A stretch of 64,000 bases of DNA from Lachnospiraceae bacterium. GTDB lineage: Bacteria; Bacillota; Clostridia; Lachnospirales; Lachnospiraceae. The stretch is from NCBI GenBank assembly GCA_022647575.1, contig JALCKY010000008.1, forward strand, positions 8,635 through 72,634, given 5' to 3'. The translations under genes and the position numbers were made by a program. This document shows, piece by piece, positions 1 through 56,097 of the stretch. The stretch's first letter is position 1, and each line of letters begins with the position of its first letter. The notes beneath the pieces are model-generated. The model was not told the DNA's origin. It saw only the letters and a list, made by a program, of their open reading frames with translations, and searched no databases.

Positions 1-339
1 ACGAAAAATCTGTGATCCGGTCAGCCAGAATGCCCCGGGATCATGGTACTCATCCACAAGGATTTTAATATAAGTGAAAAGTTCCGGCGCATACTGAACC
101 TCATCAATCAGGATCGGTGGCTTATGCAGCTGCAGAAACATCTTGGGATCGGACTTTGCCAACTCCCGCAGATTCAGGTCATCTAGGGAAACATATTCCC
201 GGCCGATGCCTTCGCGTTGGGAAAGATTTTTCAGCATCGTTGTCTTGCCGGCCTGTCTGGGGCCGGTTATTAATAATGCGGGCCAGGTTTTGCTGAGTTC
301 AAGTACCTGGTCTTCCATATGACGTTTAATATATGACAT
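1..339 (-). CDS. AAA+ ATP-binding protein (AAA_14/DUF4143-type), N-terminal part; runs off the window edge
   Basis: Manual translation from ATG at 339: MSYIKRHMEDQVLELSKTWPALLITGPRQAGKTTML. GPRQxGKTT Walker A is typical of this family. Not in the ORF track because truncated. Confidence 0.8.
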   Translation of the reverse strand, partial: MSYIKRHMEDQVLELSKTWPALLITGPRQAGKTTMLKNLSQREGIGREYVSLDDLNLRELAKSDPKMFLQLHKPPILIDEVQYAPELFTYIKILVDEYHDPGAFWLTGSQIFR

Positions 340-518
340 AGCACACCGCCATTTCTGCACCGTTTAATAATGGCAAAAACTCGTTCGATTTCATTATAGA
401 TGTATTTTATAAATACTTCAATCAAAAGTTCGGCTAATATACGGTTATTATATATTTTAGCCGCACTATTCTCTTGACGCCTATTTCATATTAATTCAAT
501 ACCCTTGGTTGAATATGA

Positions 519-1280
519 TCAACTTTTCCTCAGCAGCTTATACAGACAGTATGCTCCCGGATGCATGTATTTTGCATCTTCTTCCTCGTCTTCAATAATC
601 GGCTCACAGCTCCATCCAAGCTTTTTAAATACCTCGATTTTGCGTACTTCATCAGGCATGCCGATGATAACTGCCGTGATGACATCCCTTTCCGCATTTG
701 TAGGGACGGCATCAATGCCGACATTCTCCAGAATGATAAGGAAGTTCTTGAGCGTGCTGAGTTCTTTCGTTTCAATGTCTCCGATCAGAAAAAACGCATA
801 CTGTTCTGCCTTTCTGTCCGTCAGTTTCATGTTTTTGGCAACATGTTCCTTCAGGATATACTGTCCATCTTCATTATCTTCCTGATAATCTGTAAGCGAT
901 ACGTACATCGCAGCACAGTCGGCGCTCAGGGTGTCGCAATAGTCCATCTGATTATCGTAATCGCTGAACGCAATCCCTTCTGCGTCCGGAATAACGGATC
1001 CAAGTGTCATCCTGAGAACGGTGCGAAGGCCTGAATGCGGAGGATCTTCTTCTAAACCGTTCTCGCCATCCTCATCGTCTCTGCACATCAGATATTCCTC
1101 ATCTGAAATGCCCTTCTTCAAGGTCATCCTGACTCCGCTGAGCATGATTCCCTCTTCGGATGAAAGTTTTGTTTCGGTCGAAAGTAAATACTCTTCCTCC
1201 TCCATCAGGTCCATCGTTTCAAAATATTGGATCTTCTTCTGTTCTTTCCTTCTATCTTCATCATATTCAGGAACTCCCAT
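519..1280 (-). CDS. Acidic hypothetical protein (253 aa)
   Basis: Long ORF; GGAGG RBS upstream of ATG; overlaps the upstream gene end by 14 bp. No family recognised. Confidence 0.7.
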   Translation of the reverse strand: MGVPEYDEDRRKEQKKIQYFETMDLMEEEEYLLSTETKLSSEEGIMLSGVRMTLKKGISDEEYLMCRDDEDGENGLEEDPPHSGLRTVLRMTLGSVIPDAEGIAFSDYDNQMDYCDTLSADCAAMYVSLTDYQEDNEDGQYILKEHVAKNMKLTDRKAEQYAFFLIGDIETKELSTLKNFLIILENVGIDAVPTNAERDVITAVIIGMPDEVRKIEVFKKLGWSCEPIIEDEEEDAKYMHPGAYCLYKLLRKS

Positions 1281-2037
1281 TTGTGTTTTCCTCCAATTTC
1301 TGGCTTTCCAGACCGGCTTCTTCCTGCAGTTCCTTCAGCCTGACGGACGCGCCGCGCCTCCTCGCATAACGCATCATTTTCAGTTCATCAATGGGATATT
1401 TTTCATATGCCGCTTTCAATGACATCAGATAAGATTCTTCCGGCACAAATATTCCTATGTTCTTCTCTGCAATCAGATCGACCAGAAGTTTCTCCAGGAC
1501 AATATCGTAAGGACGTTTCCTATTACGGGGTGCTTCACTTATTTTATCGACGACGATGATCATATCATCCGTTTTATAGCTTTCTATTTCTTTCCGGCTC
1601 GGCTTATAAAAGACGTTCTTGAAATCCCGTCTCAGGAGTTCAAATATCGTTCTGGAAGATTCCTTCCGTACCTGCACGAAAATGGCACTGCATTTAAGCG
1701 CCGCAGCTGCCGATTTCTCCAGAAGATTTGTTTCAAGGAGGCAGAAATCCATCCATTCATACTGTTTCATGATGCTGTTCCGGACACGGAGCGCCTGCAT
1801 TGAATAATTTGGCCGAAAAGGCTTCCTGCTGTCCGCCGCTTTACGTGCATAGCTGTTACGGCCGATCTTATGGAGCTTTCCGTCACGGGACGTCTTCGCA
1901 AGGATCCAGCAGAATGTGTTTGCCGTTAACGAAGGATGCAGCTCCTGCAGATATTCCAATAATTCCCTGCGGCTGTATTCCTTATCCGGAAGATTTTCAA
2001 TTGCTTCTTCATACCAGAACATTTCTGCCATCTCCAC
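1267..2037 (-). CDS. DUF6577-family / AbiEi-like (type IV TA antitoxin-like) protein
   Basis: N-terminal wHTH-like segment (GKLHKIGRNSY) and C-terminal LEKLLVDLIAEK...MMRYARRRG pattern recalled from this family. Confidence 0.65.
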   Translation of the reverse strand: MEMAEMFWYEEAIENLPDKEYSRRELLEYLQELHPSLTANTFCWILAKTSRDGKLHKIGRNSYARKAADSRKPFRPNYSMQALRVRNSIMKQYEWMDFCLLETNLLEKSAAAALKCSAIFVQVRKESSRTIFELLRRDFKNVFYKPSRKEIESYKTDDMIIVVDKISEAPRNRKRPYDIVLEKLLVDLIAEKNIGIFVPEESYLMSLKAAYEKYPIDELKMMRYARRRGASVRLKELQEEAGLESQKLEENTNGSS

Positions 2038-2087
2038 CCATTTATATACCTGAATTCATTTTATCATGCCCTTTCTGCGCTAACAAT

Positions 2088-2166
2088 ATGTTTCGGCAAT
2101 TTAATTCTTGTATTGCCGAAACATGGTGACACCAAAATGACACATTAAGGTTGAAATTTGGTGTCA
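2088..2166. promoter_or_regulatory. Two adjacent inverted repeats upstream of the DUF6577 gene (candidate operator or att arm sites)
   Basis: atgtttcggcaat(2088-2100)/attgccgaaacat(2112-2124) and tgacaccaaa(2127-2136)/tttggtgtca(2157-2166). Confidence 0.5.
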
Positions 2167-2230
2167 GAAGACATATTTTCACTGTTCCTGGGTGGCTCTG
2201 AATGGATTATGGAAAGACCGGATAGACATG

Positions 2231-2280
2231 AAAAAAACGTGATAAATACGCCACTTTTCGGCTTATCTATCACGTTTTTT
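2231..2280 (-). terminator. Hairpin downstream of tRNA-Lys (probable terminator)
   Basis: aaaaaacgtgata...tatcacgtttttt inverted repeat with T/A runs on both sides. Confidence 0.55.
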
Positions 2281-2285
2281 AATCC

Positions 2286-2358
2286 TGCGCCTCCGGGGGC
2301 TCGAACCCCGGACACCCTGATTAAGAGTCAGGTGCTCTACCAACTGAGCTAGAAGCGC
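2286..2358 (-). tRNA. tRNA-Lys (anticodon CTT), CCA not encoded
   Basis: Minus strand GCGCTTCTAGCTCAGTTGGTAGAGCACCTGACTCTTAATCAGGGTGTCCGGGGTTCGAGCCCCCGGAGGCGCA: 73-nt cloverleaf, anticodon loop CT-CTT-AA, T-loop GTTCGA. Confidence 0.97.
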
Positions 2359-2396
2359 AAATGCATTGGCTGCGCTGTTTTCACAGCGCAACCATT

Positions 2397-2425
2397 ATTA
2401 TAATAAGGCTAATTGCAAAAAGCAA
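2397..2425 (-). promoter_or_regulatory. SigA-type promoter of tRNA-Lys
   Basis: TTGCTT-17 bp-TATAAT on the minus strand. Confidence 0.65.
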
Positions 2426-2462
2426 GGATTTTCTTTCAAATACGAAAATCCTTTGAAATCTT

Positions 2463-2783
2463 TTACTGCAGCAGACCTTTGATCAGATCTTCGAAATCCG
2501 CCGGGCTCATGCCGCCGATGGCGTTCTTGACCATCCGTCCGTCCTTGAACATCAGGAAATTCGGAATAGACATGACTTTGTAGGCTGCGACTGCATCGCC
2601 GTCCGTGTCAACATTGAGCTTGCAGAATTTCACCTTGTCGCCGTACTGCTCGGAGAACTTTTCAACAACCGGAGCCATCATCTGGCACGGCCCGCACCAG
2701 TCAGCGTAGCAGTCCAGAAAAACCGGCAGCGCAGACTTCATGACTTCCTGATCGAAATTATCGCTCGTTACGACTGTAACCAT
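2463..2783 (-). CDS. trxA: Thioredoxin
   Basis: WCGPC active site, 106 aa, GGAGG RBS. Confidence 0.97.
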   Translation of the reverse strand: MVTVVTSDNFDQEVMKSALPVFLDCYADWCGPCQMMAPVVEKFSEQYGDKVKFCKLNVDTDGDAVAAYKVMSIPNFLMFKDGRMVKNAIGGMSPADFEDLIKGLLQ

Positions 2784-2912
2784 AGGAACCTCCTTGAATT
2801 CTCTTATTTAAATGTTATTTTACCCTGCACCCTGAAGTTTGACAATACTGCCCGCGGGAAATGAACCCTATTTAACAAAGATTTTATGATTTGTTCGTCC
2901 CGCAGCCTGCCG

Positions 2913-3704
2913 TCAGTTTTCCGCATGAAACACTGCCGTCAGCTTGCAGATCCGGTTCCCGAGTGCCGAAAATTTTCTTTCATATTCTGTCATGATATTG
3001 CCTTCGTTCAGCACCGGATCTCGGTGCAGGTCATAAGTCTTCGCGGTGATTTCCCAGTGCGGCGCCGCCTCAAGCTCTTCCGTCGAAAAGTCGAACAGGG
3101 CACGGTTGTCAGTTTTGAACTCCAGCCGTCCGCCGTCCTTCAGCACTTTCTCATACATTTCCAGGAAATGATGCGACGTCAGCCTGCGCTTGGCATGCTT
3201 TTTCTTCGGCCACGGATCGGAAAAATTCAGATAGAGAACCGAAATCTCACCCGGTGCAAAATACAGCGGCATTTCCCGTGCATCCATGCACAGAAACCTC
3301 AGATTCTCAAGCCTCCCCGGATTCTTCTGCTCTCCGTCCGATTCTATCGTTCCGCTTCCGGCTTCTCTCTCGTCCGCATGCTGTTCTGCCGTTCCGTCTT
3401 TTCCTTCATCCGCATGCTTTTCCCCGCTTCCGTCCTCTTCCCCGTCCGCAGTCTTTTCTTCCAAAGCCTGGCAGGCACGGAACAGCACGCTTTCGTAGCG
3501 CTCGATTCCGACGTAGTTGATGCCGGGATTCAAGCGTGCGCTTTCGATCAGGAATTTTCCCTTGCCGGTTCCGATTTCCGCATAAATTTCCGCCTGCTTC
3601 GCAAAGCAGGACGCGATTCCGCCTTCGATCGGCGCCTTTTCATGGATCACGTACGGGCTGTCTGCGACAATGCCCGGCGCTTCCGGAATATTTCTCAGTC
3701 TCAT
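2913..3704 (-). CDS. trmB: tRNA (guanine-N7)-methyltransferase, with a low-complexity insertion
   Basis: EIGTGKG SAM motif, LNFSDPWPK, FKTD, TEYERKF. Confidence 0.95.
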   Translation of the reverse strand: MRLRNIPEAPGIVADSPYVIHEKAPIEGGIASCFAKQAEIYAEIGTGKGKFLIESARLNPGINYVGIERYESVLFRACQALEEKTADGEEDGSGEKHADEGKDGTAEQHADEREAGSGTIESDGEQKNPGRLENLRFLCMDAREMPLYFAPGEISVLYLNFSDPWPKKKHAKRRLTSHHFLEMYEKVLKDGGRLEFKTDNRALFDFSTEELEAAPHWEITAKTYDLHRDPVLNEGNIMTEYERKFSALGNRICKLTAVFHAEN

Positions 3705-3911
3705 GCGGCCATTATACAGTAAATATTGAGGTTTAGGAAGGTTTGTCAGCCTGAATTTTCGTCATTCTTTTTCGCAAATAATTATGTTTTTTTTATAAAA
3801 AGATGTATAATCGGTACAAATATTGAAACATGCGCAGACAATCATGGACCGCACTGAAGACACGGCCATGCATTGTTTAAAATGCGCTTATCGGAAAACA
3901 CGGAGGCCGCT

Positions 3912-4239: not shown

Positions 4240-5283
4240 ATGACGGGACTGATGGCATACAGCGGGATCACGACGAAGATCCGCGCGATGCAGAAAAATT
4301 TACTGACCGATGCGCAATTCCGGGAGATTACTTCTCTGCCGGATGTGCCTTCGATTGTTTCCTGGCTGAAGAAGGTTCCTTCCTATGCGGACGTGCTGTC
4401 CCACCTGGATGAGAACAATCTTCACCGCGGCCAGATTGAGTTTGAAATAGGAAATGCAACATACTCCGACTTCGCCTCGATCTATCAGTTCGCGAACGGG
4501 GCGCAGCGGAAGTTCCTCCGGGAATACGGCCGCCGGTTCGAGGTCAAGCTGCTGAAGCGGTGCATGAACGCCGCCATCAACGGTTCGCAGATGACCCCGG
4601 ATATCAAGGTCTACAAGGATTTCTTCGATCATTACACCGAGCTGGACCTGGATGCCTTATATGAAGCAAAGGATATACGGGCTGTTATCGATGCGCTGAA
4701 GGGAACTCATTATTACGAGCCGCTGAACCGCATTTCCCAGAACCCGGGGATGACGCTTTTCGATTACGAAACGGCGCTGGACCAGTATTATTTCGCACAG
4801 ATCTGGGATGACCGGGGCGGAATGAAGACGAAGCTCAACACGTCGATCATCACGAAGATTTTCGGCACCAAGATCGACATGCTGAACCTGATCTGGATCA
4901 ACCGGGCAAGGAATCATTACCATATGTCGGCCGCGGATATGTACGCGATGCTGATACCGATCAGCTACAAGCTGAAGAAAGAGGAAGTTCAGGCACTGGT
5001 CGAGGCGGATTCGTCCGATGCGTATGAAAGTGCCCTGAAGAAGACTTATTTCGGGCGGGTCTATAAAAATTATATGGCCCCCGAGAATCTCGGTTCCGAA
5101 TATAATTATGTGCTTCGCCACATTTTAAATAAACTGTCCCGCGAGGATCCTTATTCTGTAGCGACGCTGCACAATTATCTTTATTTAAAGGAGCACGAAA
5201 TCGCCCGGCTGACCATTGCCGTTGAATGTGTCCGGTACGGAATGCCGTCCGATGAAGCTATGAAGCTGATTCTCGCCTTATAG
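4240..5283 (+). CDS. ntpC: V-type ATPase subunit C (AC39/d family)
   Basis: 347 aa, YSGITTKIRAM N-terminus, operon position. Confidence 0.85.
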   Translation: MTGLMAYSGITTKIRAMQKNLLTDAQFREITSLPDVPSIVSWLKKVPSYADVLSHLDENNLHRGQIEFEIGNATYSDFASIYQFANGAQRKFLREYGRRFEVKLLKRCMNAAINGSQMTPDIKVYKDFFDHYTELDLDALYEAKDIRAVIDALKGTHYYEPLNRISQNPGMTLFDYETALDQYYFAQIWDDRGGMKTKLNTSIITKIFGTKIDMLNLIWINRARNHYHMSAADMYAMLIPISYKLKKEEVQALVEADSSDAYESALKKTYFGRVYKNYMAPENLGSEYNYVLRHILNKLSREDPYSVATLHNYLYLKEHEIARLTIAVECVRYGMPSDEAMKLILAL

Positions 5284-12735: not shown

Positions 12736-13648
12736 TCAGTTTCGTATTAAATAATCCTGGACAGAATCGATGCAGTTTGCTCCGTCCGCACAGGCCGTGA
12801 TGATCTGGCGGAGGGTTTTTGTCCGTACATCGCCTGCCGCGAATACGCCGTCAGCCGACGTTCTGCCGTCTTCTCCGGCCATGATGTACCCGCTCGCATC
12901 CATGCTGACCTTGCCCTTGAGAAGCCCCGAATTCGGCAGGATTCCGACGGCAATGAAGACGCCGTCGATATGAAGCACCCTTGTCGAGTCATCCTTTACA
13001 TTATGGCACCTGAGGGCGCCCGTCTGGTTCTCTCCTTCGATTGAATCGACGACGCTGTCCCAGACCATTTCCACATTCGGAAGGGAGAGCATCTTCTCCT
13101 GCAGCGACTTGGCCGCCCGCAGCTCGTGCCTCCTGTGCACGACGTAGACCTTCCGGCATCCCCTTGCCAGGAAAATCGCATCGCCGACGGCAACATCCCC
13201 GCCTCCGACGACCGCGACATCCGATCCCTTGAAGAAGGCTCCGTCGCAGGTTGCGCAGTAGGAAACGCCCATTCCCGCCAGTTCTTCCTCGCCTTTGACG
13301 CCGAGTCTTGCGATGATCTGCTCCCGTCGCGAAAATCAGCGTCTTCGCTTCGTAAGTATTCTGATCCGTCCGGACCGTCTTTGTACTGCCTTCCGGACTG
13401 ATTTCCTGCACGGTCTCCGTCACGAATTTCGCTCCGAGACCTTCTGCCTGCTCTCTCATTTTCAGTCCCAGGTCCATCCCCGAAATACCCGGGCAGCCTG
13501 GATAGTTATCGATCTGATAAGTGTTGACCACCTGTCCGCCGCTGATGAAATTCTGTTCGATCACGATAAAATCAAGCCTTGCCCGTGCCGCATAAATGGC
13601 CGCCGACAGCCCTGCCGGTCCCGAGCCGATAATGATTAAATCCAGCAT
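12736..13648 (-). pseudogene. trxB: Thioredoxin reductase with a +1 frameshift (pseudogene or sequencing error)
   Basis: N-terminal GSGPAG half (ORF 13001-13648) and C-terminal CATC/GGGD/AAGD half (ORF 12736-13272). Removing base 13306 restores ...[26 protein letters not shown], 303 aa. Confidence 0.9.
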
Positions 13649-14388: not shown

Positions 14389-14610
14389 CGAACGCAGAAT
14401 ATCGATGCGATGCGGCGCGGGTTCCAACTCCAGCCGCAGAGAATCTGTGTTCCGTGTGAGGGCGTCCGAGGAGGCCGGTACACGGCGAGGTACTTTCGAG
14501 CCGATGTACCGCTGCACGACGAGCGAGCGAAAGCGTCCCGAACGCGGAATACAGATGCGATGCGGCACGGGTTCCGATCCCAGCCGCCAAGAATCAATAT
14601 TCTGTGTGAG
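14389..14610. repeat. Structured intergenic element, copy 1: 84-bp core (14458-14541) overlapped at both ends by 72-bp direct repeats
   Basis: Direct repeats 14389-14460 and 14539-14610 (59/72 identical by hand alignment); core is 79/84 identical to the reverse complement of 30757-30840. Confidence 0.85.
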
Positions 14611-14621
14611 CTCCCAATTTC

Positions 14622-14650
14622 TTGTAATTTCCTGTCTTTTTGCGTATAAT
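14622..14650 (+). promoter_or_regulatory. SigA-type promoter for the GGDEF*-ECF-pil operon
   Basis: TTGTAA-17 bp-TATAAT about 50 bp upstream of ATG 14700. Confidence 0.6.
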
Positions 14651-14699
14651 TCATTTGTATACTTAAAAAAATCCGTGCCTCAGCAAGGAGCCATTCCCC

Positions 14700-15392
14700 A
14701 TGAAGAAAATCAGGAACTTCAAGATCATACAGCTCATCCTGATCACCCTGTTTGCCGTCATCGGATATATCCTTATTTTCCGCAGGACCTCACCCGAGAC
14801 CATGCATCAGGATCTGATCCCATTTTCCGTCATGTACTATGTTTTCATCGGTGCCCTGATTATTCTGATTGCCGGCATCTGCATCGATCTTCTGCTCCTT
14901 TCCAAGCTGGAAGTCGAGAAGCAGAGTCTCGACAAGCTTTCCTATCTGGACCCGGTTACCGGAGGTCTGAACCGCACGAGCACCGATATCCTCGCGAAGC
15001 AGTATGAAGCCGACGGCAAAGTCGCAAACGGCGGCTGCTTCATTTTCCACATCACGAACCTGGTTGAAATCAATAAGTCGGCAGGCTACAAGGAAGGCGA
15101 CCGCCTGCTGCGGATGTTTTATTCCCTGCTGGAAATGCAGGTCCGGGACGGAGGCTTCGTCACGAGAAATATACCGGACCGCTTTGTGGTTTATTTCCCG
15201 GATGTCAGCCGCGCTTTCGCGGATGATTTCATAGAAAAGGTCGGCAAGTCCGTCAGCGACTATAACGTGGATGCCTTCGATACGCCGATTGAATACGATT
15301 CTGTCTATTCACTGAACAGCGAAGAAAAGAAAGAGACGATTTCGGAACTGATTGCCTGTACGATTGCAAAATTGAAGCCAGGCAGCATATAA
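14700..15392 (+). CDS. Membrane protein (2 TM) with a degenerate GGDEF domain
   Basis: DPVTGGLNR, INKSAGYKEGDRLL and VTR-NIPDRF in place of R-x-GGDEF. Confidence 0.8.
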   Translation: MKKIRNFKIIQLILITLFAVIGYILIFRRTSPETMHQDLIPFSVMYYVFIGALIILIAGICIDLLLLSKLEVEKQSLDKLSYLDPVTGGLNRTSTDILAKQYEADGKVANGGCFIFHITNLVEINKSAGYKEGDRLLRMFYSLLEMQVRDGGFVTRNIPDRFVVYFPDVSRAFADDFIEKVGKSVSDYNVDAFDTPIEYDSVYSLNSEEKKETISELIACTIAKLKPGSI

Positions 15393-15422
15393 AGCAAACA
15401 AAAGATTCAAGGCAGGCGGCTG

Positions 15423-15992
15423 ATGGAAAAAATCAACCCCGCATATGTAGCCTCACTGGTCAAACGGGCTCAGGAAAATGATTCCGATGCTTTCGCCGAA
15501 CTGTATCTGATGCCTTACAAGCAGCAGTACCTGTTCGCACGGAATTACCTGAGAGACGATTATCTTGCGCAGGACGCAGTCCAGGAAGTCTATATACTTG
15601 CGCTGAAGAACATTCTAAAACTGAAGGAACGAAGAGTCTTTCCGGCCTGGATCCGGCAGATCAATCTGAGGGTCTGCTACGATATGGCACGGAAGCTGAA
15701 GGAGCATCCGGAAGAACAGCAGGATGACGAGGTCATGAACGAAATCGCCGATGAAAACATTTCGAACAACCCGGAAGCCAGCACCATGCGGCTGTTCGAA
15801 AACCAGGACCTGAACAACGCCCTGAATAAACTGCCGCTTGAAGAAAAAGAAGCCCTGCTTTTAAAATATTCCGCAGAAATGAAGTTTGAAGAGATCGCAA
15901 AAACGATGAATGTCAGCGTCAGTACGGTTACACGCTACTTGAACCGGGGCGAACAGCATCTGACAAAGATTATGACGGAAGGAGGGAAATGA
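15423..15992 (+). CDS. ECF RNA polymerase sigma factor
   Basis: AFAELY, AQDAVQEVYI, F-AWIRQI region 2 and EEIAKTMNVSVSTV region 4 HTH. Confidence 0.93.
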   Translation: MEKINPAYVASLVKRAQENDSDAFAELYLMPYKQQYLFARNYLRDDYLAQDAVQEVYILALKNILKLKERRVFPAWIRQINLRVCYDMARKLKEHPEEQQDDEVMNEIADENISNNPEASTMRLFENQDLNNALNKLPLEEKEALLLKYSAEMKFEEIAKTMNVSVSTVTRYLNRGEQHLTKIMTEGGK

Positions 15993-15995
15993 ACC

Positions 15996-16532
15996 ATGAG
16001 CAGGCTGAAAAAAGGAGATGTTGAATTCTCCGATGACTATTCCAAGATTGAGATCCCGACTTCCCTGAAGAACGACGCCCTCAAGAATATCTTTGAGGCA
16101 GCCGGCAAACAGCCCAATACCATTCCCGTCGAGATCCTGGAGCTGAAGGCCCATAAGCAGTCGCACGCGATGCACCTGATCGCGTTCATTTCCGTGTGCC
16201 TGTTTGCCGTCCTTCTCCTTACCGCCGTCCCGGTATTCGTGCGCTCCTGCGGGAGTTCCACCGGCACTGTCCAGAATGTCGATGTCAGCAAACCTGTCCA
16301 TGTCGGCGACTATAAAAACGGCTCCGACCTGGTCATTCAGCTGAGAGACGGCACTTATCCGATCGACTGGACCGGGATCTATGCCCTGACGTCCGACGGA
16401 ACGAAGATCACGCCGACGGCCCTGGATGAAAAAGCCGGCACGGTTACTTTCCCGCTTGATCTGGGAGATCTGAATATCTATATTCCTGATACGAAAGGGA
16501 ATGTGCTGCAGCTCCTTCTCAGCGCAAAATAG
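15996..16532 (+). CDS. Single-TM protein, putative anti-sigma factor
   Basis: Directly downstream of the ECF gene; ~55-aa cytoplasmic N-terminus, one TM, beta-rich extracellular part. Confidence 0.55.
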   Translation: MSRLKKGDVEFSDDYSKIEIPTSLKNDALKNIFEAAGKQPNTIPVEILELKAHKQSHAMHLIAFISVCLFAVLLLTAVPVFVRSCGSSTGTVQNVDVSKPVHVGDYKNGSDLVIQLRDGTYPIDWTGIYALTSDGTKITPTALDEKAGTVTFPLDLGDLNIYIPDTKGNVLQLLLSAK

Positions 16533-16535
16533 CAG

Positions 16536-17513
16536 ATGAACAAACAGCAATTCTTCGTCCGGGTGAGAAGAAGGTTCCTGCTGCCTGCCGCGCTTCTGAT
16601 TTCCGCGGCAGTCTTTTCAGCCTGTTCTTCTTCCGGAAACGGATCTTCCATCCGGGTGCCGGATACCTCCGTCACGGATTCGACCGTGAAGGGAACCCGG
16701 GACAATACGCCGGATGTCCTTATGCCGGAAGCATCGGGCAGCGCCGCGGACGGAACAGACATCGTGACCGTCGACTCCAGCAACATTTCCAAGGGATATC
16801 TCATGGTCCGGTACACGGGAACCGATGAAGATCCGAAAATCCTCATCGCCATGCCGGACGGCAGCAATTATTATTACCATCTCCACAATTCCGGTGAGTA
16901 CGAAACTTTTCCGCTCACCGCCGGAGACGGGACATACACCGTTTCCATCCTGAAAAATATCCAGGCAGACCAGTACGCCCTGGAATTTACGGAAGAACTG
17001 AATGCCGCCATCGCGGATCCCCTGACCCCCTATCTCTATCCGAGCCAGTATGTGGATTTCAATGCGGACTCGAAGGCCGTGGCAAAGGGAGCGGAGCTGG
17101 CCTACACCGCAAATGACGATCTGACGGTCATCGGAAATGTCTACAGCTTCGTGGCCGGCACGGTCACCTACGATTACAGCGAAGCGGAGACGGTCCAGTC
17201 GGACTACACGCCTTCCCCTGACCGGACGCTTTCCAGCTGCAAGGGAATCTGCTTTGACTACGCGGCCCTGATGGCGACGATGCTGCGCTCCCAGAAAATT
17301 CCGACCCGTCTCGAAGTCGGGTACGCAGGCACGGCTTACCATGCCTGGGTTTCCTGCTACGTGGACGAAATCGGCTGGGTCAACGGCATCATCCAGTTCG
17401 ACGGAAAAAACTGGACGATGATGGATCCGACCTTCGCCGCCTCGAAGGGTGAAAAAGGCGTCCAGGATTATATCGGGGACGGCTCGAACTATAAGACGAA
17501 ATATGTTTACTGA
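16536..17513 (+). CDS. Transglutaminase-like domain lipoprotein
   Basis: Lipobox FSAC; GICFDYAAL, YHAWV and MDPT give an intact Cys-His-Asp triad. Confidence 0.9.
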   Translation: MNKQQFFVRVRRRFLLPAALLISAAVFSACSSSGNGSSIRVPDTSVTDSTVKGTRDNTPDVLMPEASGSAADGTDIVTVDSSNISKGYLMVRYTGTDEDPKILIAMPDGSNYYYHLHNSGEYETFPLTAGDGTYTVSILKNIQADQYALEFTEELNAAIADPLTPYLYPSQYVDFNADSKAVAKGAELAYTANDDLTVIGNVYSFVAGTVTYDYSEAETVQSDYTPSPDRTLSSCKGICFDYAALMATMLRSQKIPTRLEVGYAGTAYHAWVSCYVDEIGWVNGIIQFDGKNWTMMDPTFAASKGEKGVQDYIGDGSNYKTKYVY

Positions 17514-17536
17514 TGCATCAGTCATGGAAACCGTAC

Positions 17537-17605
17537 TGCTGCATAAGTCATAGAAAAGGCAATGCTGCATAAATCATAGAATGGCAATGCTGCACAGGTC
17601 ATAAA
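17537..17605. repeat. Degenerate 25-26-bp tandem repeat (~2.7 copies)
   Basis: tgctgcataagtcatagaaaaggcaa / tgctgcataaatcatagaatggcaa / tgctgcacaggtcataaa. Confidence 0.75.
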
Positions 17606-17619
17606 ACAGGAGATGCGCG

Positions 17620-18630
17620 ATGCTCACGAATCTGGAAATGTCTTCATTCTGCGGACAGATGGCGATGGTGCTCAAATCCGGCATTTCCACGCTGGAAGGC
17701 GTGGAAATCATGCGAAATGATGCTGCCACGGACAAGGGCAGGGAACTTCTTGACGGCGTTTATTCAACCCTCGAGAAAACCGGCTCCCTGGCGGATGCCC
17801 TGAAGGACTCCGGGGAATGCCCGGAATATGCCGCCGACATGATCCGGATCGGCGAGCAGTCCGGCAAGCTGGAAAACGTCATGCGCTCCCTTTCCGCCTA
17901 CTACAAGCGGGAGGATGACATCGCCTCCGGAATCAAGAACGCCGTCACCTATCCTCTCATCATGATCCTGATGATGTTCGCCGTGGTAGGCGTCCTGATC
18001 GTCCGCGTGCTCCCGATCTTCAACAGCGTCTATCAGCAGCTGGGGACGGAAATGACGGGAGCTGCCCGGGCACTGCTGACATTTTCCGTAAATTCCGGAA
18101 AATACCTGGCCGGCGTGCTGGCCGTGCTGGCCGTCATTTTCATCATCCTGTTCATTCTGCTCCGCACGAACAGCCGCTTCCGCACAAAATTCCCCCTGAG
18201 CCGCACTCTCTACCGGGAAATCGCCGAAGCGCGCTTTGCCGGCGGCATGGCGCTCACCCTCCAGTCCGGCCTGGACACCGACGAAAGCATGGATCTGGTC
18301 GAGAAGCTGGCGGACCATCCCCTGGTTTCCTCCCGCATCGCGAAATGCAGGGCATTTCTCAAAGACGGATCCGATTTCTCCGAAGCCGTCCGGAAATCGG
18401 AAGTCTTTCCGGCCGTCTATACGCGCATGACGGACATCGGTATGCGTTCCGGCTCCCTCGATGAGGCGATGTCGAACATTTCCGACCTCTACGAAGAAGA
18501 CATCGACGGCAGGATTACGCGCCTGCTGTCGATTCTTGAACCGACGCTCGTCATTATCCTGGCCGTCATCGTGGGCGTGATTCTTCTGTCCGTCATGCTG
18601 CCCCTGATGTCCGTCATGTCGACGCTGTAG
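17620..18630 (+). CDS. pilC: Type II secretion F / PilC-family platform protein
   Basis: QMAMVLKSGI, IGEQSGKLE, VTYP, GMRSGSLDE, LEP; two T2SSF repeats. Confidence 0.9.
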   Translation: MLTNLEMSSFCGQMAMVLKSGISTLEGVEIMRNDAATDKGRELLDGVYSTLEKTGSLADALKDSGECPEYAADMIRIGEQSGKLENVMRSLSAYYKREDDIASGIKNAVTYPLIMILMMFAVVGVLIVRVLPIFNSVYQQLGTEMTGAARALLTFSVNSGKYLAGVLAVLAVIFIILFILLRTNSRFRTKFPLSRTLYREIAEARFAGGMALTLQSGLDTDESMDLVEKLADHPLVSSRIAKCRAFLKDGSDFSEAVRKSEVFPAVYTRMTDIGMRSGSLDEAMSNISDLYEEDIDGRITRLLSILEPTLVIILAVIVGVILLSVMLPLMSVMSTL

Positions 18631-18643
18631 GAAAGGACGTAAA

Positions 18644-18982
18644 ATGAACCGCTTTACAGGCAGGCATTCCTCGCATCTCCTCCGTACCGTTCTTCTGTCC
18701 GCCGCCGGCTTTGCCACCGCGATGGTCCTTTTTCTGTACGGTCTGGGAAATGCCGGTGCCTCTTCCTCGAAACAGCAGATGGAAAGCCTGACTGCCGCCA
18801 TTAACCGCGACGTCATCCACTGCTACGCAACGGAAGGCGTCTATCCGGAAAGCCTTGACTGGATTGAGAAGCATTACGGCCTGACCTATGACAGCAGCCG
18901 CTTCTACGTCGACTATCAGCCCGTCGCCAAAAACATCATGCCGGAAATCACGGTCATCGATCTGAAGGGAGGCACCTCATGA
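18644..18982 (+). CDS. Pilin-like hypothetical (N-terminal TM)
   Basis: 112 aa; CYATEGVYPESL motif; follows pilC. Confidence 0.65.
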   Translation: MNRFTGRHSSHLLRTVLLSAAGFATAMVLFLYGLGNAGASSSKQQMESLTAAINRDVIHCYATEGVYPESLDWIEKHYGLTYDSSRFYVDYQPVAKNIMPEITVIDLKGGTS

Positions 18983-28308: not shown

Positions 28309-30711
28309 ATGCAGACAGCTATGACGGGACTGACAGACAAGGAAGCGGCCGACCGGGCAGCAGCCGGAAAGGTCAATGTCACCATCAAAAAGGGACAGCG
28401 GACGGTCGGACAGATCGTACGCGCCCATACGCTGACCTACTTTAATTTCATCAATATCGTACTGGGCGTCCTTATTTTCCTGACAGGCCAGTATAAAAAC
28501 CTTCTGTTTTTGGGCGTCATCATTTTCAACTCGGCCATCGGTATCGTCCAGGAGCTCCGCGTCAAGCAGCTCATTGACAAGCTGACCGTCATCACGGCAT
28601 CAAAGGTGACCGTCATCCGCAGCGGAAATGACAAGGAAATTCCGATTGACCAGATTGTCGTCGATGACCTTGTCCATCTGTCGGTCGGCGACCAGATCGT
28701 AACGGACGGCAAGGTCATGAAGTCCGAAGGCCTGGAAGTCAACGAATCCATGCTGACCGGCGAATCCATTCCCGTGCACAAGAATTACGGCGACTCGCTT
28801 TATTCCGGCTCCTTCATCGTAGCCGGCACCGGCCTTGAAAAAGTTGAAAAGGTCGGAAATGAATGCTATGCAGCGCAGATTGTTGAGAAAGCTTCCGTCA
28901 AGCACCGTGCTTCTTCGGAAATGCAGCTGACGATCGGCCGCATCATCAAGGTTGTTTCCATCGCGATCATCCCGCTCGGCCTGCTTCTGTACAGAAGCCA
29001 GGTCCATGCTTCTCCCACGGATATGGCCAATGCCATCGTCCGTACCTGCTCCGGCGTCCTTTCCATGATTCCCGAAGGCCTGGTTCTTCTGACTTCCGTT
29101 TCCTTCATCATCGGCGTCGGCCGTCTGGCCATGAAGAATGCCCTTGTCCAGGAAATGGAATCCATTGAAGCGCTGGCGCGAGTCACGGTCCTGTGCACCG
29201 ATAAAACCGGCACGATCACGACCGGAAACCTGCAGGTTACCGAAACCATCCCTCTTGCCGATATGGATGAAGATCACATCCGTGAAGTCATGGCCGCCAT
29301 GAACGGCGCCTTCAGCGACGTCAACGTGACGCAGGACGCGCTGATCAAATACTTCGGAAAAAAGAACGACTGGTCCATTTCCGACAGCATCCCCTTCTCT
29401 TCGGCAAGGAAATTCCGCGCCGCCGCTTTCGGCGATAACGGGAGCTATGCTCTCGGCGCTCCCGAATTTCTGGTGAAGGACAATCAGAAGATTCTCGACA
29501 TGATCGACGATTATTCCGACCAGGGCTACCGTGTCCTGATGCTCGGGAAATGCGCAGCGATTTCATCGGCCGACGATTCCGTCAGCAGCGTGAAACCGGT
29601 CGCCGCCATCGTCATTTCCGATATCATCAAGACCGATGCGGCGGAAACCTTCAAGTATTTCGCAGATGCAAAAGTCGCAGTGAAGGTAATTTCCGGCGAT
29701 AATCCCAGAACCGTTTCAGCCGTCGCCGTCAAGGCCGGCGTTGAAAACGGAGACAAGTACATCGACGCGACGACTCTTCCGAACACCCTGCCGGAGCTGC
29801 AGAAAGTCATTTCCAATTATACTGTCTTCGGCCGCGTGAAACCGGAGCAGAAGCAGCTGTTCGTCAAGGCATGGCAGGCGAACGGAGAAACCGTCGGCAT
29901 GGTCGGCGACGGCGTGAACGACGTCCTTGCCATCAAGGATGCCGACTGCGGCATCGCCATGGCCAACGGCTCGGAGGCGGCAAAACAATCCGCCCACATC
30001 GTTCTGCTGAATTCGAATTTCGCCTCCATGCAGGACATCGTGAAGGAAGGCCGCACGATCATTGCCAACATTGAGCGTGTCTCTTCCCTGTATCTGACGA
30101 AGACTATCTACGCTTCCATCATGTGCCTGATTTTCATTCTGCTGAAAACAGACTATCCGTTCACGACCCTGCAGATCGGACTCATCAATGTGACCGCCAT
30201 CGGCATCCCGAGCTTCCTCCTGACCTTCGAACAGAAGGAGAAAGTCTATATCGGAGGCTTCCTAAACCACGTCCTGCGCGTCGCCGTGCCATCTGCCTTT
30301 ACCATGGTCGTCATGATGATGGTCGTGCAGATTCTGCGGTTTGCCTTCGGATGGAACATGGAAATCTATGCGACATTTTCCATCATGCTCGGCGGCCTCG
30401 TCGGCATGCTGGTCGTGCTCCAGGTTCTGTGGCCAATGAATCCCTATCACTGCTTCATTTTCGGATCCGGCGCCGGAGTCTTTATCCTGGCGATTATTTT
30501 CCTGCCGCATTTCTACGACATGGCCCCGATCGGAATGTGGTGGTCCCTTCTTCTGATTCCTCTCGGTGCCCTGACGCTTTGGCTCATCGTGGAATTCTCA
30601 AAACTGGCCAACCGCTTCACGGACTGGTTCCTTGCGGAACAGAAGCGTGTCCGGGCCATACGTAAAAAACGTCCGCCGGAAGAACCCAAGAAACCAAAAT
30701 ACTATCAGTAG
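28309..30711 (+). CDS. P-type cation-transporting ATPase (CtpE-like)
   Basis: TGES, PEGL, DKTGT phosphorylation site, GDGVND hinge. Confidence 0.93.
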   Translation: MQTAMTGLTDKEAADRAAAGKVNVTIKKGQRTVGQIVRAHTLTYFNFINIVLGVLIFLTGQYKNLLFLGVIIFNSAIGIVQELRVKQLIDKLTVITASKVTVIRSGNDKEIPIDQIVVDDLVHLSVGDQIVTDGKVMKSEGLEVNESMLTGESIPVHKNYGDSLYSGSFIVAGTGLEKVEKVGNECYAAQIVEKASVKHRASSEMQLTIGRIIKVVSIAIIPLGLLLYRSQVHASPTDMANAIVRTCSGVLSMIPEGLVLLTSVSFIIGVGRLAMKNALVQEMESIEALARVTVLCTDKTGTITTGNLQVTETIPLADMDEDHIREVMAAMNGAFSDVNVTQDALIKYFGKKNDWSISDSIPFSSARKFRAAAFGDNGSYALGAPEFLVKDNQKILDMIDDYSDQGYRVLMLGKCAAISSADDSVSSVKPVAAIVISDIIKTDAAETFKYFADAKVAVKVISGDNPRTVSAVAVKAGVENGDKYIDATTLPNTLPELQKVISNYTVFGRVKPEQKQLFVKAWQANGETVGMVGDGVNDVLAIKDADCGIAMANGSEAAKQSAHIVLLNSNFASMQDIVKEGRTIIANIERVSSLYLTKTIYASIMCLIFILLKTDYPFTTLQIGLINVTAIGIPSFLLTFEQKEKVYIGGFLNHVLRVAVPSAFTMVVMMMVVQILRFAFGWNMEIYATFSIMLGGLVGMLVVLQVLWPMNPYHCFIFGSGAGVFILAIIFLPHFYDMAPIGMWWSLLLIPLGALTLWLIVEFSKLANRFTDWFLAEQKRVRAIRKKRPPEEPKKPKYYQ

Positions 30712-30732
30712 GTCGCTTGTTGAAGATGGCGT

Positions 30733-30864
30733 GCAGGGCGGACATATATTTCGTGATCGGGACGCTCCCGCTCGCTCGTCGTGCAGCGGTACATCGGCTC
30801 AATAATACCTCGCCGTGTACCGGCCTCCTCGGACGCCCTCTCACGAAACACATGCCCGCCCTGC
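30733..30864 (-). repeat. Structured intergenic element, copy 2
   Basis: Core 30757-30840 is the reverse complement of 14458-14541 (5 differences); closed by gcagggcgg..tttcgtga / tcacgaaa..ccgccctgc. Confidence 0.85.
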
Positions 30865-30954
30865 TTCACTCCTCTTCAGTCGCTATGCTAAAAAAACCGG
30901 CAGCCCTCATGGGCTGCCAGTATAATATCATGTCATTCTTTAATTCCAATACCT

Positions 30955-31020
30955 TTGCTTCTGTCTTTGTCTGTCTTTGTCTGTCTTTTCTTTCTATCTT
31001 CTTTCTGTCTTTTCTTTCTG
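30955..31020. repeat. Pyrimidine-rich microsatellite-like tract
   Basis: Repeated tctgtctttg / tctttct units. Confidence 0.65.
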
Positions 31021-31068
31021 TTTAATTCTTTTTGTCTTCCTAGCAGAAATACATCATCGTCAGCTCCG

Positions 31069-31262
31069 GCTGAACTATGCTCTCTGCAGGGACATTGACG
31101 AGGCGGGTGCTTAGCGAGGTCTTATCGAGCTTAGCACCCCTGCACGAGGATCTGAGCGGGAGCGCGCCCTGCAGAGAACATAATTCAGCAAGGAGCGTTC
31201 GATTGATGTCTTTCCGGGCTTAGCACCCCTGCACGAGGATCTGAGCGGGAGCGTTCCCTGCA
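31069..31262 (+). repeat. Structured intergenic element, copy 3 (divergent) plus partial duplicate
   Basis: Shares gaggc, gcgaggt, cgagc, ctgcacga and gagcgggagcg with copies 1 and 2; closing stem gctgaa..ctctgcaggg / ccctgcagag..ttcagc; 3' half duplicated at ~31218-31262. Confidence 0.75.
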
Positions 31263-31312
31263 CAGAATATGCAGTGAACTCTCACGCTCAGCAGATTATT
31301 CATCGACAAGCA

Positions 31313-33274
31313 TTACCACTCAAACACCGCCGCGCAGTATGCCGGCAGCGGGAACTCGATGCTGTACGGCCGGCGGTCGCATTCGCCCTTCTGGGCCGCA
31401 TAGGAAACCTTCCTGATTTCCGCCGTGCCTCCGAACTTCGGGTCTGCCGAGTTCAGGATCAGCTTGTAGCTCTTCTTCACCGGCACGCCGCAGCGGTAGT
31501 CCGGACGCTCAATCGGCGTCATGTTCAGGACAAACAGAAGATTCTTCTTGCCGTCCGGCGACTTGCGCATGAAACTGTAGATGCTGCGGTCTGCATCATC
31601 CGCATTGATCCATTCAAAGCCGTTCGGATCGGTATCGGTTGCATAAAGTGCCGGATACTTCCGGTACATTTTCCAAAGTTCGCGGACGTAGTCCAGGAGT
31701 GCCTTGTTCAGCGGCTGATTGAGAAGGAACCAGTCGAGCTCGCGGTCTTCCGACCATTCTCTCTGCTGGCCGAAATCCTGTCCCATGAAGAGAAGCTTCT
31801 TTCCCGGATGGCCGCACATGAACGTGTAGGCCTCTCTTAAGTTCGAGAACTTGTCTTCATAAATGCCCGGCATCTTCTGCCACATTGAGCATTTCAGGTG
31901 AACCACTTCATCATGGGAAAGCACGAGCACATATTTCTCGCTGTAGCAGTAGGAAGTCGAGAACGTCAGCTTGTAATGATTGAATTTCCGGAAATAAGGA
32001 TCGAGCTTCATGTATTCCAGGAAATCATTCATCCAGCCCATGTTCCATTTCAGTCCAAAGCCCAGTCCGCCTTTTTCAACATCGCCGGTTACCTGCGGCC
32101 ATGCCGTGGACTCTTCGGCAATCATGACGGTTCCCTTGTTCCGTCCCTGAACGAGCGTATTGAGATGCTTGAAGAATTCAATCGCTTCCAGGTTCTTGTT
32201 CTCGCCGTACTTGTTGGCCACCCACTGGCCGTCCGATTTTCCGTAATCCAGATACAGCATCGACGCCACGGCATCGACGCGCAGTCCGTCGATATGGAAG
32301 AACTCGATCCAGTAGAGGGCATTTGCCAGGAGGAAATTCTTGACCTCCGGACGACCGTAGTTGAAAATCTTCGTGCCCCATTCCGGATGCTCGCCTTTTC
32401 TCGGATCGGCATGCTCGTAAAGGGCACAGCCGTCGAAATTCGCCAGGCCGAAATCGTCTTTCGGGAAATGAGCCGGTACCCAGTCAAGGATGACGCCGAT
32501 TCCCTTGCCGTGCAGGTAATCGACCATGTACTGGAAATCGTCCGGCGTGCCGTACCTAGAAGTCGGTGCATAATAACCCGTCACCTGATAGCCCCAGGAG
32601 CCGTCGAACGGATGCTCGGCGATTCCCATGAGCTCAATGTGGGTATAATTCATGTCTTTCAGATAATCCGCGATGCGGACCGCAAATTCGCGGTAATTGT
32701 AGAAGCCGTCCGGGATGCCGTCCGATTCCGGGTGCTTCATCCAGGAGCCGGGATGGCATTCGTAAATGACCATCGGATCCTTGTCGACGTTGAAGTTTTC
32801 CCTCTGCTTCATCCATTTGTCATCGGTCCATTTCAGACGGCTGCTGTCCCAGATTACCGAGGCATTTCCCGGACGGAGCTCTGCCTGATTGGCATACGGA
32901 TCGGCCTTGTAGAGATGCTGCCCTTCCGCGCCGATGATGTAGTATTTGTAGAGAGAGCCTTCCTGCACGCCGGGAATGAACGTATCCCAGACTTCCAGCT
33001 CATCCTTCTTCGTCATGAAGTTCGCTTCGACGTTCCAGCTGTTGAAGTCGCCGACCACCGAAATCGCGCGGGCATTCGGAGCCCATACCGCGAAATACGT
33101 TCCCTTGACTCCGTCGCGTTCTGCCGGATGCGCACCGAGCTTGCGGTAAAGATCATAATGCGTAGCATGCCCGAAAAGATACTGGTCGTATTTCGTGAAC
33201 TCCAGATATTTCTCATTGACCGGCTTGCGCGGTGCACGTTCCTTGGTTTCGGAAACCGTCTTTTTCGTGTTCAT
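31313..33274 (-). CDS. glgB: 1,4-alpha-glucan branching enzyme
   Basis: FAVWAPNA, WGYQVTGYY, DWVPAHF, GLRVDAVASM, AEEST, LSHDEVVH. Confidence 0.97.
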   Translation of the reverse strand: MNTKKTVSETKERAPRKPVNEKYLEFTKYDQYLFGHATHYDLYRKLGAHPAERDGVKGTYFAVWAPNARAISVVGDFNSWNVEANFMTKKDELEVWDTFIPGVQEGSLYKYYIIGAEGQHLYKADPYANQAELRPGNASVIWDSSRLKWTDDKWMKQRENFNVDKDPMVIYECHPGSWMKHPESDGIPDGFYNYREFAVRIADYLKDMNYTHIELMGIAEHPFDGSWGYQVTGYYAPTSRYGTPDDFQYMVDYLHGKGIGVILDWVPAHFPKDDFGLANFDGCALYEHADPRKGEHPEWGTKIFNYGRPEVKNFLLANALYWIEFFHIDGLRVDAVASMLYLDYGKSDGQWVANKYGENKNLEAIEFFKHLNTLVQGRNKGTVMIAEESTAWPQVTGDVEKGGLGFGLKWNMGWMNDFLEYMKLDPYFRKFNHYKLTFSTSYCYSEKYVLVLSHDEVVHLKCSMWQKMPGIYEDKFSNLREAYTFMCGHPGKKLLFMGQDFGQQREWSEDRELDWFLLNQPLNKALLDYVRELWKMYRKYPALYATDTDPNGFEWINADDADRSIYSFMRKSPDGKKNLLFVLNMTPIERPDYRCGVPVKKSYKLILNSADPKFGGTAEIRKVSYAAQKGECDRRPYSIEFPLPAYCAAVFEW

Positions 33275-55534: not shown

Positions 55535-56097
55535 GCTTCGTGCCCCCGGAGCTCCCTTCCCATCTGTCATCCGCTGCCTGGGCAGGACAGAGCACACGCA
55601 GACACGCTTGCTTCGGTTCTTTCCGCGCTCGCCGATGGATGGGCTGCTCCGAAAACTCAGCGGGCTCTCCTGATCTTTTGTCAGGCAGCGTCAGGAGGCA
55701 GGGCCGCTATGACGATAGCGTCAGCTTCGTCGCCGTTTCTGCACGATGCGATGGGCTGCGCAGAATTGTCCGAAGCGGGCTCCTTCCCATGCATGTAACG
55801 GTCCTCCGTGAGAGGCAGTGCCTCTCACGGAGGATTGTTATCAATGAAGGGAGCCCGCAAGTTTTCGGAGCAGCCCATCCATCGGCGAGTGCAGAAACGG
55901 CAGAAGCAAGCGTGTCAGAGCGGCCCTGTCTCCTGAGGATGCCTGCTGACAGTCAAGGAAAGAGCCCGCTTCAGACAGTTCTGCGCAGCCCATCGCATCG
56001 CGCGGAAAGAACTGCGAAGCTGGCGCTATCGTCCGCGTGCGCTCTGCCCTGTCCGGGCAGCGGGCGAAAGGGGAGGGGTTCTCCGGGGGCGCAAAGC
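55535..56097. repeat. 563-bp rod-like imperfect palindrome
   Basis: Centre tcctccgtgagaggca-g-tgcctctcacggagga (55802-55834), plus nested perfect stems out to cccccggag/ctccggggg. Confidence 0.9.

Follow-up and report, generated by a model that had tools for sequence, protein, structure and literature searches.

An apparently low-copy structured intergenic repeat with a constrained core and nested self-complementary arms in a Lachnospiraceae-like lineage

Introduction

What kind of element keeps the same unpaired motifs and the same fold between unrelated genes while the bases of its stems are exchanged in pairs? The question is posed by an intergenic hairpin repeat in a stretch of 64,000 nucleotides from a Lachnospiraceae bacterium (GCA_022647575.1, contig JALCKY010000008.1, positions 8,635-72,634 of the forward strand), referred to here as the window. 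The usual view of bacterial intergenic repeats is that they are selfish DNA in decay or hairpins that simply act as stabilisers. A first-pass annotation, made from the letters of the window, had described three copies of this repeat and proposed that their structure is under selection, either as a multi-copy non-coding RNA (ncRNA) or as a single-stranded DNA element of the REP/REPIN kind. We find that the repeat is an undescribed, lineage-restricted structured intergenic family with two unusual properties: purifying selection acts on the cores of resident copies, and the cores are closed by nested self-complementary arms.

Copies of the repeat in the window

The repeat is about 105 bases long, with a conserved core of 84 bases, and occurs as two types, A and B. 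Its copies in the window are as follows, with positions counted from the first base of the window.

14446-14551, + strand: A-type copy c1, with core 14458-14541 and closing stem P1 TGTTCCGTGT / ACGCGGAATA; covariance model 129 bits; identical in contigs L011/L029-L033
14389-14610, + strand: array around c1, about 1.6 units of a 150-bp tandem unit made of A plus a spacer hairpin of ~44 nt
30733-30864, - strand: A-type copy c2 with extended hairpin, the repeat itself at 30747-30852; covariance model 131.7 bits
31051-31211, + strand: B-type copy c3 with extended imperfect outer arms, the repeat itself at 31078-31180, P1 CTCTGCAGGG / CCCTGCAGAG; covariance model 100.5 bits
31205-31267, + strand: half B copy (3′ half), 63 bp, 89% identical to c3 in a BLAST of the window against itself

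The same self-comparison aligns c1 with c2 at 96 of 106 bp, and at 79 of 84 over the core 14458-14541, the figure first reported, while c3 resembles both across a central 52 bp at 81%. A pattern of common motifs (GCGAGGTNNTNTYGAGC...CTGCACGA) matches the window at exactly c1, c2 and c3, against 0.00 matches expected from shuffles. All three copies are borne out at their positions. Their reading at the level of motifs also holds: c3 keeps the unpaired GAGGC, GCGAGGT..CGAGC, CTGCACGA and GAGCGRRAGCG, its stem has passed from cggtaca/tgtaccg to gggtgct/agcaccc through three compensated pairs, and an inner G-C pair has become A-U. The closing stem had been described as different in each copy yet always paired; it does always pair, but the stems of c1 and c2 are homologous (TGTTCCGTGT / TGTTTCGTGA), with a few compensated differences, and only that of c3 truly differs. 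Orientations are mixed, with three copies on the + strand and one on the - strand. A direct repeat of 72 bp, termed X, brackets c1 (14389-14460 and 14539-14610, 82% identical), and the half B copy abuts the glgB stop codon, to which it contributes.

The core folds into a strand-biased three-way junction

A consensus fold computed on nine sequences contains 43 pairs at -56.75 kcal/mol, of which 12 are changed on both sides, and standard pairs occupy 96.6% of cells; none of 500 shuffles reaches these values, and slid controls pair at 28-49%. The proposal that structure is kept through compensatory changes is thus supported by the fold together with its controls, and a comparison of types A and B gives the same picture, with unpaired motifs kept and stems compensated. 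The reverse strand folds worse (-42.92 kcal/mol, 36 pairs), and the structure is therefore strand-biased rather than simply a DNA palindrome. From the outside inwards, its layers are the closing stem P1, a GGG/CCC closure, and a long irregular helix with a short side hairpin, where the closure and the side hairpin complete a three-way junction. The long helix pairs the GAGGAGGC region on the 5′ side with the GCUGCACGA region on the 3′ side and runs on into the compensated stem, carrying a conserved tandem G.A/A.G step and then a 7-nt A/T-rich apical loop; the side hairpin is GCG(A/G)(A/G)AGC (GCGRRAGC). The 84-nt core thus folds, best on one strand, into a junction closed by P1 and then by arms that are specific to each locus.

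Template switching during replication can yield compensatory changes in a single step (PMC8794818), and covariation alone is for that reason no proof of selection on an RNA. On this count the original claim of structure under selection, as argued from covariation, is weakened; the constraint on the core at orthologous loci, described next, supports it more strongly than could be seen from the window.

The core is constrained in place

As a neutral reference we used other intergenic DNA and third codon positions, which differ by ~9% between genomes that are ~95% identical. Across four orthologous pairs of elements, only 5 of 423 positions differ (binomial P 6e-12 against ~9%), and the core of resident copies changes about 7 times more slowly than neutral sites; the ~21 positions per copy that the scan pattern fixed inflate this contrast somewhat. 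Two of the five changes fall in loops, two turn a G-C pair of the folding strand into G.U, and one disrupts a pair. A set of strains fetched through the ATPase protein, and thus unbiased with respect to the element, has 2 variable sites of 106 in c2 and 4 of 103 in c3, with flanks full of substitutions and indels. Around c1, the 72-bp spacers are 10-15% diverged, which is the neutral rate.

A comparison of five independent A loci shows where change is accepted: variable columns make up 11 of 24 in P1, 4 of 7 in the apical loop, whose composition is partly fixed by the scan pattern, and 2 of 77 in the rest of the core. Orthologues are more alike than paralogues, which rules out concerted evolution. 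The core is under purifying selection in place; change is tolerated in P1, in the apical loop and in the outer arms. This separate evidence of constraint restores the claim of a functional core, though covariation alone is weak.

The surroundings of the copies vary in a coarser way. Tandem copy number differs among strains at the c1 locus, where at least 2 full units are present in L029, a relative at 95% average nucleotide identity; in L009, a partial duplication of 52 bp lies at c2; and a 96-bp segment (31218-31313) that holds the half B copy is present in some strains and absent from others, as is an 89-bp CT-rich tract. The low-complexity CT-rich sequence at window 30940-31040, made of tctgtctttg-type units, shows length differences of 56 and 89 bp among strains.

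Locus-specific arms extend the hairpin in nested layers

When 40-45 nt of flank are added to the fold, each copy becomes the tip of a rod of ~130-200 nt, in which pairing continues past the closing stem first described by roughly 5-40 locus-specific bp, depending on the locus. Flank pairs with flank at all six independent loci, with energies of -38 to -61 kcal/mol, where shuffled flanks reach -17 to -23 (sd ~4). The first pairs form at the element border itself, with 13, 21 and 14 uninterrupted pairs at c2 and at the copies on contigs L010 and L012; the outer arms of c2, for example, are gcagggcggacat (30733-30745) and atgcccgccctgc (30852-30864). No direct repeat or target-site duplication is found at the borders of the six loci, where the flanks are inverted complements from the border outward.

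These layers are nested. The core is common to A and B, P1 is common to all A copies, an extra layer (GGGCGGGCATG/CATGCCCGCCC) is found only in c2 and in the copy on L010, at loci that are unrelated, and outside this shared layer every copy has its own unique complementary sequence. Template switching is documented to create and to homogenise stems (PMC8794818, PMC5941160, PMC13100816), and this process, or fold-back priming, is the best explanation for arms that are continuous, nested and locus-specific. We infer that selection does not act on each pair of the copy-specific outer arms and that these arms are made by palindrome extension at the level of DNA.

Distribution and copy number

The family matches no described Rfam family. 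With Rfam 15, the whole window returns only a tRNA at the gathering threshold, stretches of 118-621 nt around each copy return only noise of 10-14 bits at E<=10, and the related loci have no match either. An exact-pattern scan of 185,579 species-representative genomes gave 8 matches, all of them chance matches in unrelated high-GC DNA; three patterns gave no real match in viral contigs; and BLAST against phages and plasmids gave no match. Translated copies, searched against protein sets of 5.8 billion and 1.84 billion sequences, recovered only a spurious open reading frame (ORF) of the window itself; two Arg-rich low-complexity proteins met in these searches are unrelated to the family. A small-ORF reading was rejected, as the ATG-led frame present in A is absent from B.

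The metagenome scan recovered true copies on seven loci, on a few contigs of the same lineage. These included orthologues of c1 (with at least 2 tandem units), c2 and c3 in the 95%-identical genome, and the following A copies at other sites.

L010: between convergent dinB and dapL, 3′ of dapL
L023/L024: between divergent tsaE and a cyclophilin (PPIase) gene
L012: upstream of parA, in a 48% GC organism

The L012 copy is still 95% identical to c1. Searches with the covariance model, run with filters off in the window, found no further copy there or elsewhere in the lineage DNA that was searched (~250 kb, in large part strain copies that overlap). Over the scans of metagenome, genome-representative and viral contigs and the covariance-model searches, the distinct loci number about six, three of them in the window. 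The expectation of many more copies genome-wide is therefore unsupported by the contig scans and the ~250 kb of lineage DNA. In three samples, short-read contigs stop within c1 (window position 14487), which is what would be expected of a genome with more than one A copy. Covariance-model scores of the copies span 100-137 bits, and the loci were recovered in independent assemblies from JGI, ENA, NCBI and Logan. For the neighbouring ATPase, the nearest homologues beyond its own cluster are 85%, 75% and then ~60% identical, the last group being labelled Lachnospiraceae. As far as seen, the family is low-copy and restricted to one uncultured Lachnospiraceae-like lineage.

Genomic context and expression signals

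The copies had been placed just downstream of genes in mixed orientation; the mixed orientation stands, but at other loci a copy can also be found between divergent genes. c1 comes after a GDSL lipase gene, upstream of the promoter that serves the next operon. c2 with its extended hairpin begins 22 nt past the stop codon of a P-type ATPase gene, and c2 and c3 stand back to back where the ATPase and glgB genes converge. The tsaE and cyclophilin genes diverge, each with a conserved -10 box, and the L023/L024 copy sits between these two boxes. Two expression signals near the window copies are relevant here.

14622-14650, + strand: sigma-70-like promoter (TTGTAA-17-TATAAT) of a GGDEF operon, downstream of c1
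30896-30921, - strand: canonical intrinsic terminator (11-bp stem + T7), between c2 and c3

With this promoter downstream of it, c1 lies outside the leader of the GGDEF operon. The terminator probably ends the glgB transcript and is separate from the repeat; it is the only one in the region, and no T-tract or terminator-like site is found at any copy. Nor do the borders show any consensus promoter or terminator, the flanks being unrelated among copies. Neither a transposase, a RAYT/IS200 gene, a reverse transcriptase nor an integrase occurs in the 64 kb or beside any copy; the first-pass annotation had suggested looking for a RAYT or IS200-type TnpA next to a copy, and that search came back empty over the same range.

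These observations dispose of several familiar assignments. As a riboswitch or 5′ leader the repeat is excluded by the -10 boxes of the downstream genes, which stand between element and gene at c1, L012 and L023, while c2 and c3 face the 3′ ends of genes. No T-tract follows the copies, as an intrinsic terminator would have, and a family of promoter-driven small RNA (sRNA) genes is contradicted by unrelated flanks with no shared promoter or terminator.

Relatives at 75-84% TsaE identity keep the PPIase-tsaE synteny and have no element, the boxes in one of them lying only ~16 nt apart; these element-free relatives are too diverged to show whether the arms pre-existed. Among the ATPase relatives considered as empty sites, one contig ends 60 nt past the gene and the other is without synteny. 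The same spacer collects unrelated repeats in different lineages: in a relative (L048/L049, ~230-310), it holds three copies of a different unit, GAACCAAAGGGACGGGGGT. On L012, four perfect parS palindromes (TGTTTCACGTGAAACA) stand in an ~80-nt tandem unit upstream of parA (4360-5204), with the A copy among them. The ends of P1 (TGTTYC...GRAATA) resemble the outer parS hexamers, but parS is absent from the window and type B fails to fit, and the resemblance is probably a coincidence.

A proposed reading: a folded single strand with arms grown by palindrome extension

The reading that we favour, tentatively and at a little under an even chance, is that of a low-copy, lineage-restricted, structure-constrained hairpin module that is read as a folded single strand, RNA or DNA, and whose outer arms arise by DNA-level palindrome extension. 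The fold is biased to one strand and its unpaired motifs are conserved, which points to a folded single strand read by a factor acting in trans. The folded core would be that single strand, with its conserved internal-loop motifs serving as the recognition surface for a putative trans-acting factor, probably a protein; the strand may be RNA, produced by read-through from neighbouring genes, or it may be DNA that replication or cruciform formation exposes. The palindrome would grow into its flank by fold-back priming, or by a switch of template, at the hairpin, and each new copy would bring along the arm held when it was copied, giving the nested order of core, P1, shared extension and unique extension.

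Several observations weigh against this reading. The covariation of the inner stem is carried by two deep lineages only, A and B, and the invariance of the ~21 core columns fixed by the pattern in scan-derived copies is there by construction. The outer left arm of c2 decays without compensation in some strains, so that the arms are not actively maintained, and palindrome extension is drawn from pattern alone, no empty site close enough for comparison having been found. Orientation relative to transcription is also inconsistent, being sense 3′ of the lipase gene and of dapL and uncertain between convergent genes, and copies between the divergent tsaE/PPIase promoters and upstream of the parA promoter lie outside any predicted transcript. 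The mixed orientations in the window lend no support to a role for ssDNA specific to one replication strand.

How the alternatives fare depends largely on these same data. A multi-copy small ncRNA, each copy being transcribed on its best-folding strand and acting as a protein sponge or scaffold, or as the source of a stable RNA cut from the long stem by a double-strand RNase, would account for a fold that is clearly better on one strand, for the fixed G.U pairs, GNRA-type side loop and tandem G.A step, for purifying selection on an 80-nt core, and for the two of five orthologue differences that convert G-C to G.U on the folding strand. However, G.T wobbles, tandem G.A steps and GCGAAAGC-type mini-hairpins are stable in single-stranded DNA too, and there is neither a promoter or terminator common to the copies, whose flanks are unrelated, nor a match in Rfam. 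Two loci lie upstream of both neighbouring promoters, and between the convergent genes it is the antisense strand that mRNAs of the neighbours would contain. Copies that have no expression signals in common and are placed inconsistently speak against a conventional sRNA gene, and we consider an ncRNA family rather unlikely. Movement as non-autonomous DNA, in which a hairpin of the kind of a MITE (a miniature inverted-repeat transposable element) or a REPIN is moved in trans by a transposase or an HUH/RAYT enzyme that is encoded elsewhere and binds the motifs, fits the dispersal over non-syntenic intergenic sites of every type, the 95% identical copy in a 48% GC organism, the element's absence from relatives with TsaE 75-84% identical, whose tsaE-PPIase spacer is syntenic, the likeness of P1 to a 16-bp terminal inverted repeat, and the breaks of short-read contigs within the element. 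It is improbable all the same: the flanks are inverted rather than direct, with no target-site duplication, A and B share an interior and not their ends, which is the opposite of a MITE, no mobility gene accompanies any copy or occurs in the 64 kb, copy number is low, and resident copies are conserved in place as non-autonomous elements normally are not.

A further possibility is that a small core inserts into the loops of pre-existing hairpins, such as terminators or REP-like palindromes, so that the arms are the old hairpin. Four of the six loci lie at the 3′ ends of genes, where terminators are expected, and a P1-like hairpin without a core (CCGTGAGAGG-cagt-gCCTCTCACGG) occurs at 55794-55840. 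Yet the pairing runs unbroken across the border of the element with no leftover loop bases, no T-tract follows the arms, and long arms of the same kind stand between two divergent promoters, where a terminator is unexpected; moreover, the arm layer common to non-orthologous copies must have travelled with the element. We rate this origin as very improbable. Chance similarity or an assembly artefact has nothing in its favour and is already refuted, given three pattern matches against 0.00 expected, scores of 100-137 bits, and loci present in independent JGI, ENA, NCBI and Logan assemblies. Of the two alternatives offered at the outset, ncRNA or REP/REPIN-like ssDNA element, neither is singled out, in view of the missing RAYT or transposase and target-site duplication and the inconsistent orientation; what stands is that an uncatalogued structured repeat family is real.

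Comparison with known repeats and structured DNA

Several known systems share part of this description. Like the REP/BIME and REPIN-RAYT repeats of Proteobacteria, the repeat is intergenic, hairpin-forming and multi-copy, is often found at the 3′ ends of genes, and is arranged as singles, as an inverted pair (c2/c3) and, together with other motifs, in clusters of a mosaic or tandem kind (the c1 array and its spacer X). REPs, however, are palindromes of 20-40 nt in tens to hundreds of copies per genome with an accompanying RAYT gene, whereas here the unit has 84-106 nt and a branched fold, occurs at ~6 loci across the scans with no RAYT nearby, and conserves its interior rather than its stem. 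A MITE is likewise excluded: the ends of A and B are unrelated, no parent insertion sequence was found, and the six loci have no target-site duplication. Also comparable are ERIC/IRU (~127 bp, in Enterobacteria and Vibrio), bcr1 of the Bacillus cereus group and the pneumococcal BOX, RUP and SPRITE elements, which like the present repeat are imperfect intergenic palindromes of 100-200 nt found in either orientation, with internal indels and partial copies. The repeat differs from these in having no sequence similarity to them, no TA-type duplication and no conserved ends, and in the purifying selection on its resident copies and the locus specificity of its outer arms.

Integron attC sites and the single-strand origins (sso) of rolling-circle plasmids, both functional as folded ssDNA, also conserve a structure and a few unpaired motifs while their stems vary. 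In contrast to these, the repeat has no R or L boxes, integrase, cassette array or uniform orientation, and lies in a chromosomal housekeeping context rather than on a plasmid; an attC site is further excluded by mixed orientation and by a conserved part that is central, not terminal. Hairpins made and maintained by template switching (PMC8794818; PMC5941160; PMC13100816) offer a mechanism by which perfect stems, one-step compensation and inverted repeats that grow outward can arise with no selection on each pair. What those papers describe is a mutational process rather than an element family with a conserved functional core, and we apply it to this repeat by inference. The repeat is accordingly not a riboswitch, a terminator, a classical MITE, a REP, an attC site or a known RNA.

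A near-invariant core combined with a stem rebuilt at each locus points to a putative reader of the folded core, and the nested arm layers are a natural record of palindrome growth, through which an origin of hairpins by template switching becomes testable in a bacterial repeat family. The family also carries a caution, in that compensatory changes in a repeat family are insufficient alone to call an RNA gene. On a wider and more speculative view, which we think improbable, it would represent a widespread unrecognised class in which a functional, selected folded cap seeds outward-growing palindromes by fold-back or template-switch synthesis, with the nested layers as their history and a putative protein as reader.

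Other features of the window

Upstream of ileS, a sequence of 563 bp (55535-56097) that looks like a rod-shaped palindrome is not a simple one, as its blocks pair in the order a-b ... a′-b′ (I1, 55711-55787 with 55957-56033; I2, 55601-55657 with 55860-55916). At its apex (55796-55840) stands a hairpin that resembles P1 but lacks a core. A link between this sequence and the repeat was rejected, since alignment scores are within those of shuffles and the apex alone resembles P1. In L023/L024, ~90 nt away from the A copy, a module of 45 bp from the same region (55709-55753) is found again with 93-96% identity, which suggests a second repeat family that co-occurs with the hairpin repeat.

At 12736-13648 on the - strand, a pyridine-nucleotide oxidoreductase gene is split into two overlapping ORFs of 178 and 215 aa and is a single 303-aa gene in the near-identical L030-L038; judged from these sequences, the split is a frameshift or a sequencing error in the GCA_022647575.1 assembly. 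The region upstream of the V-ATPase operon is a point of strain-level rearrangement (window 1-3779 against L030 1-85), where the window has tRNA-Lys and DUF6577 genes and the 99.3%-identical L030 has a DDE (DUF772/DDE_Tnp_1_2) transposase gene. Elsewhere, 60-70 bp are duplicated in tandem at 26265-26394 with 94-97% identity, and two adjacent paralogous response-regulator GGDEF-EAL genes are 72% identical between 61222-61886 and 63321-63985.

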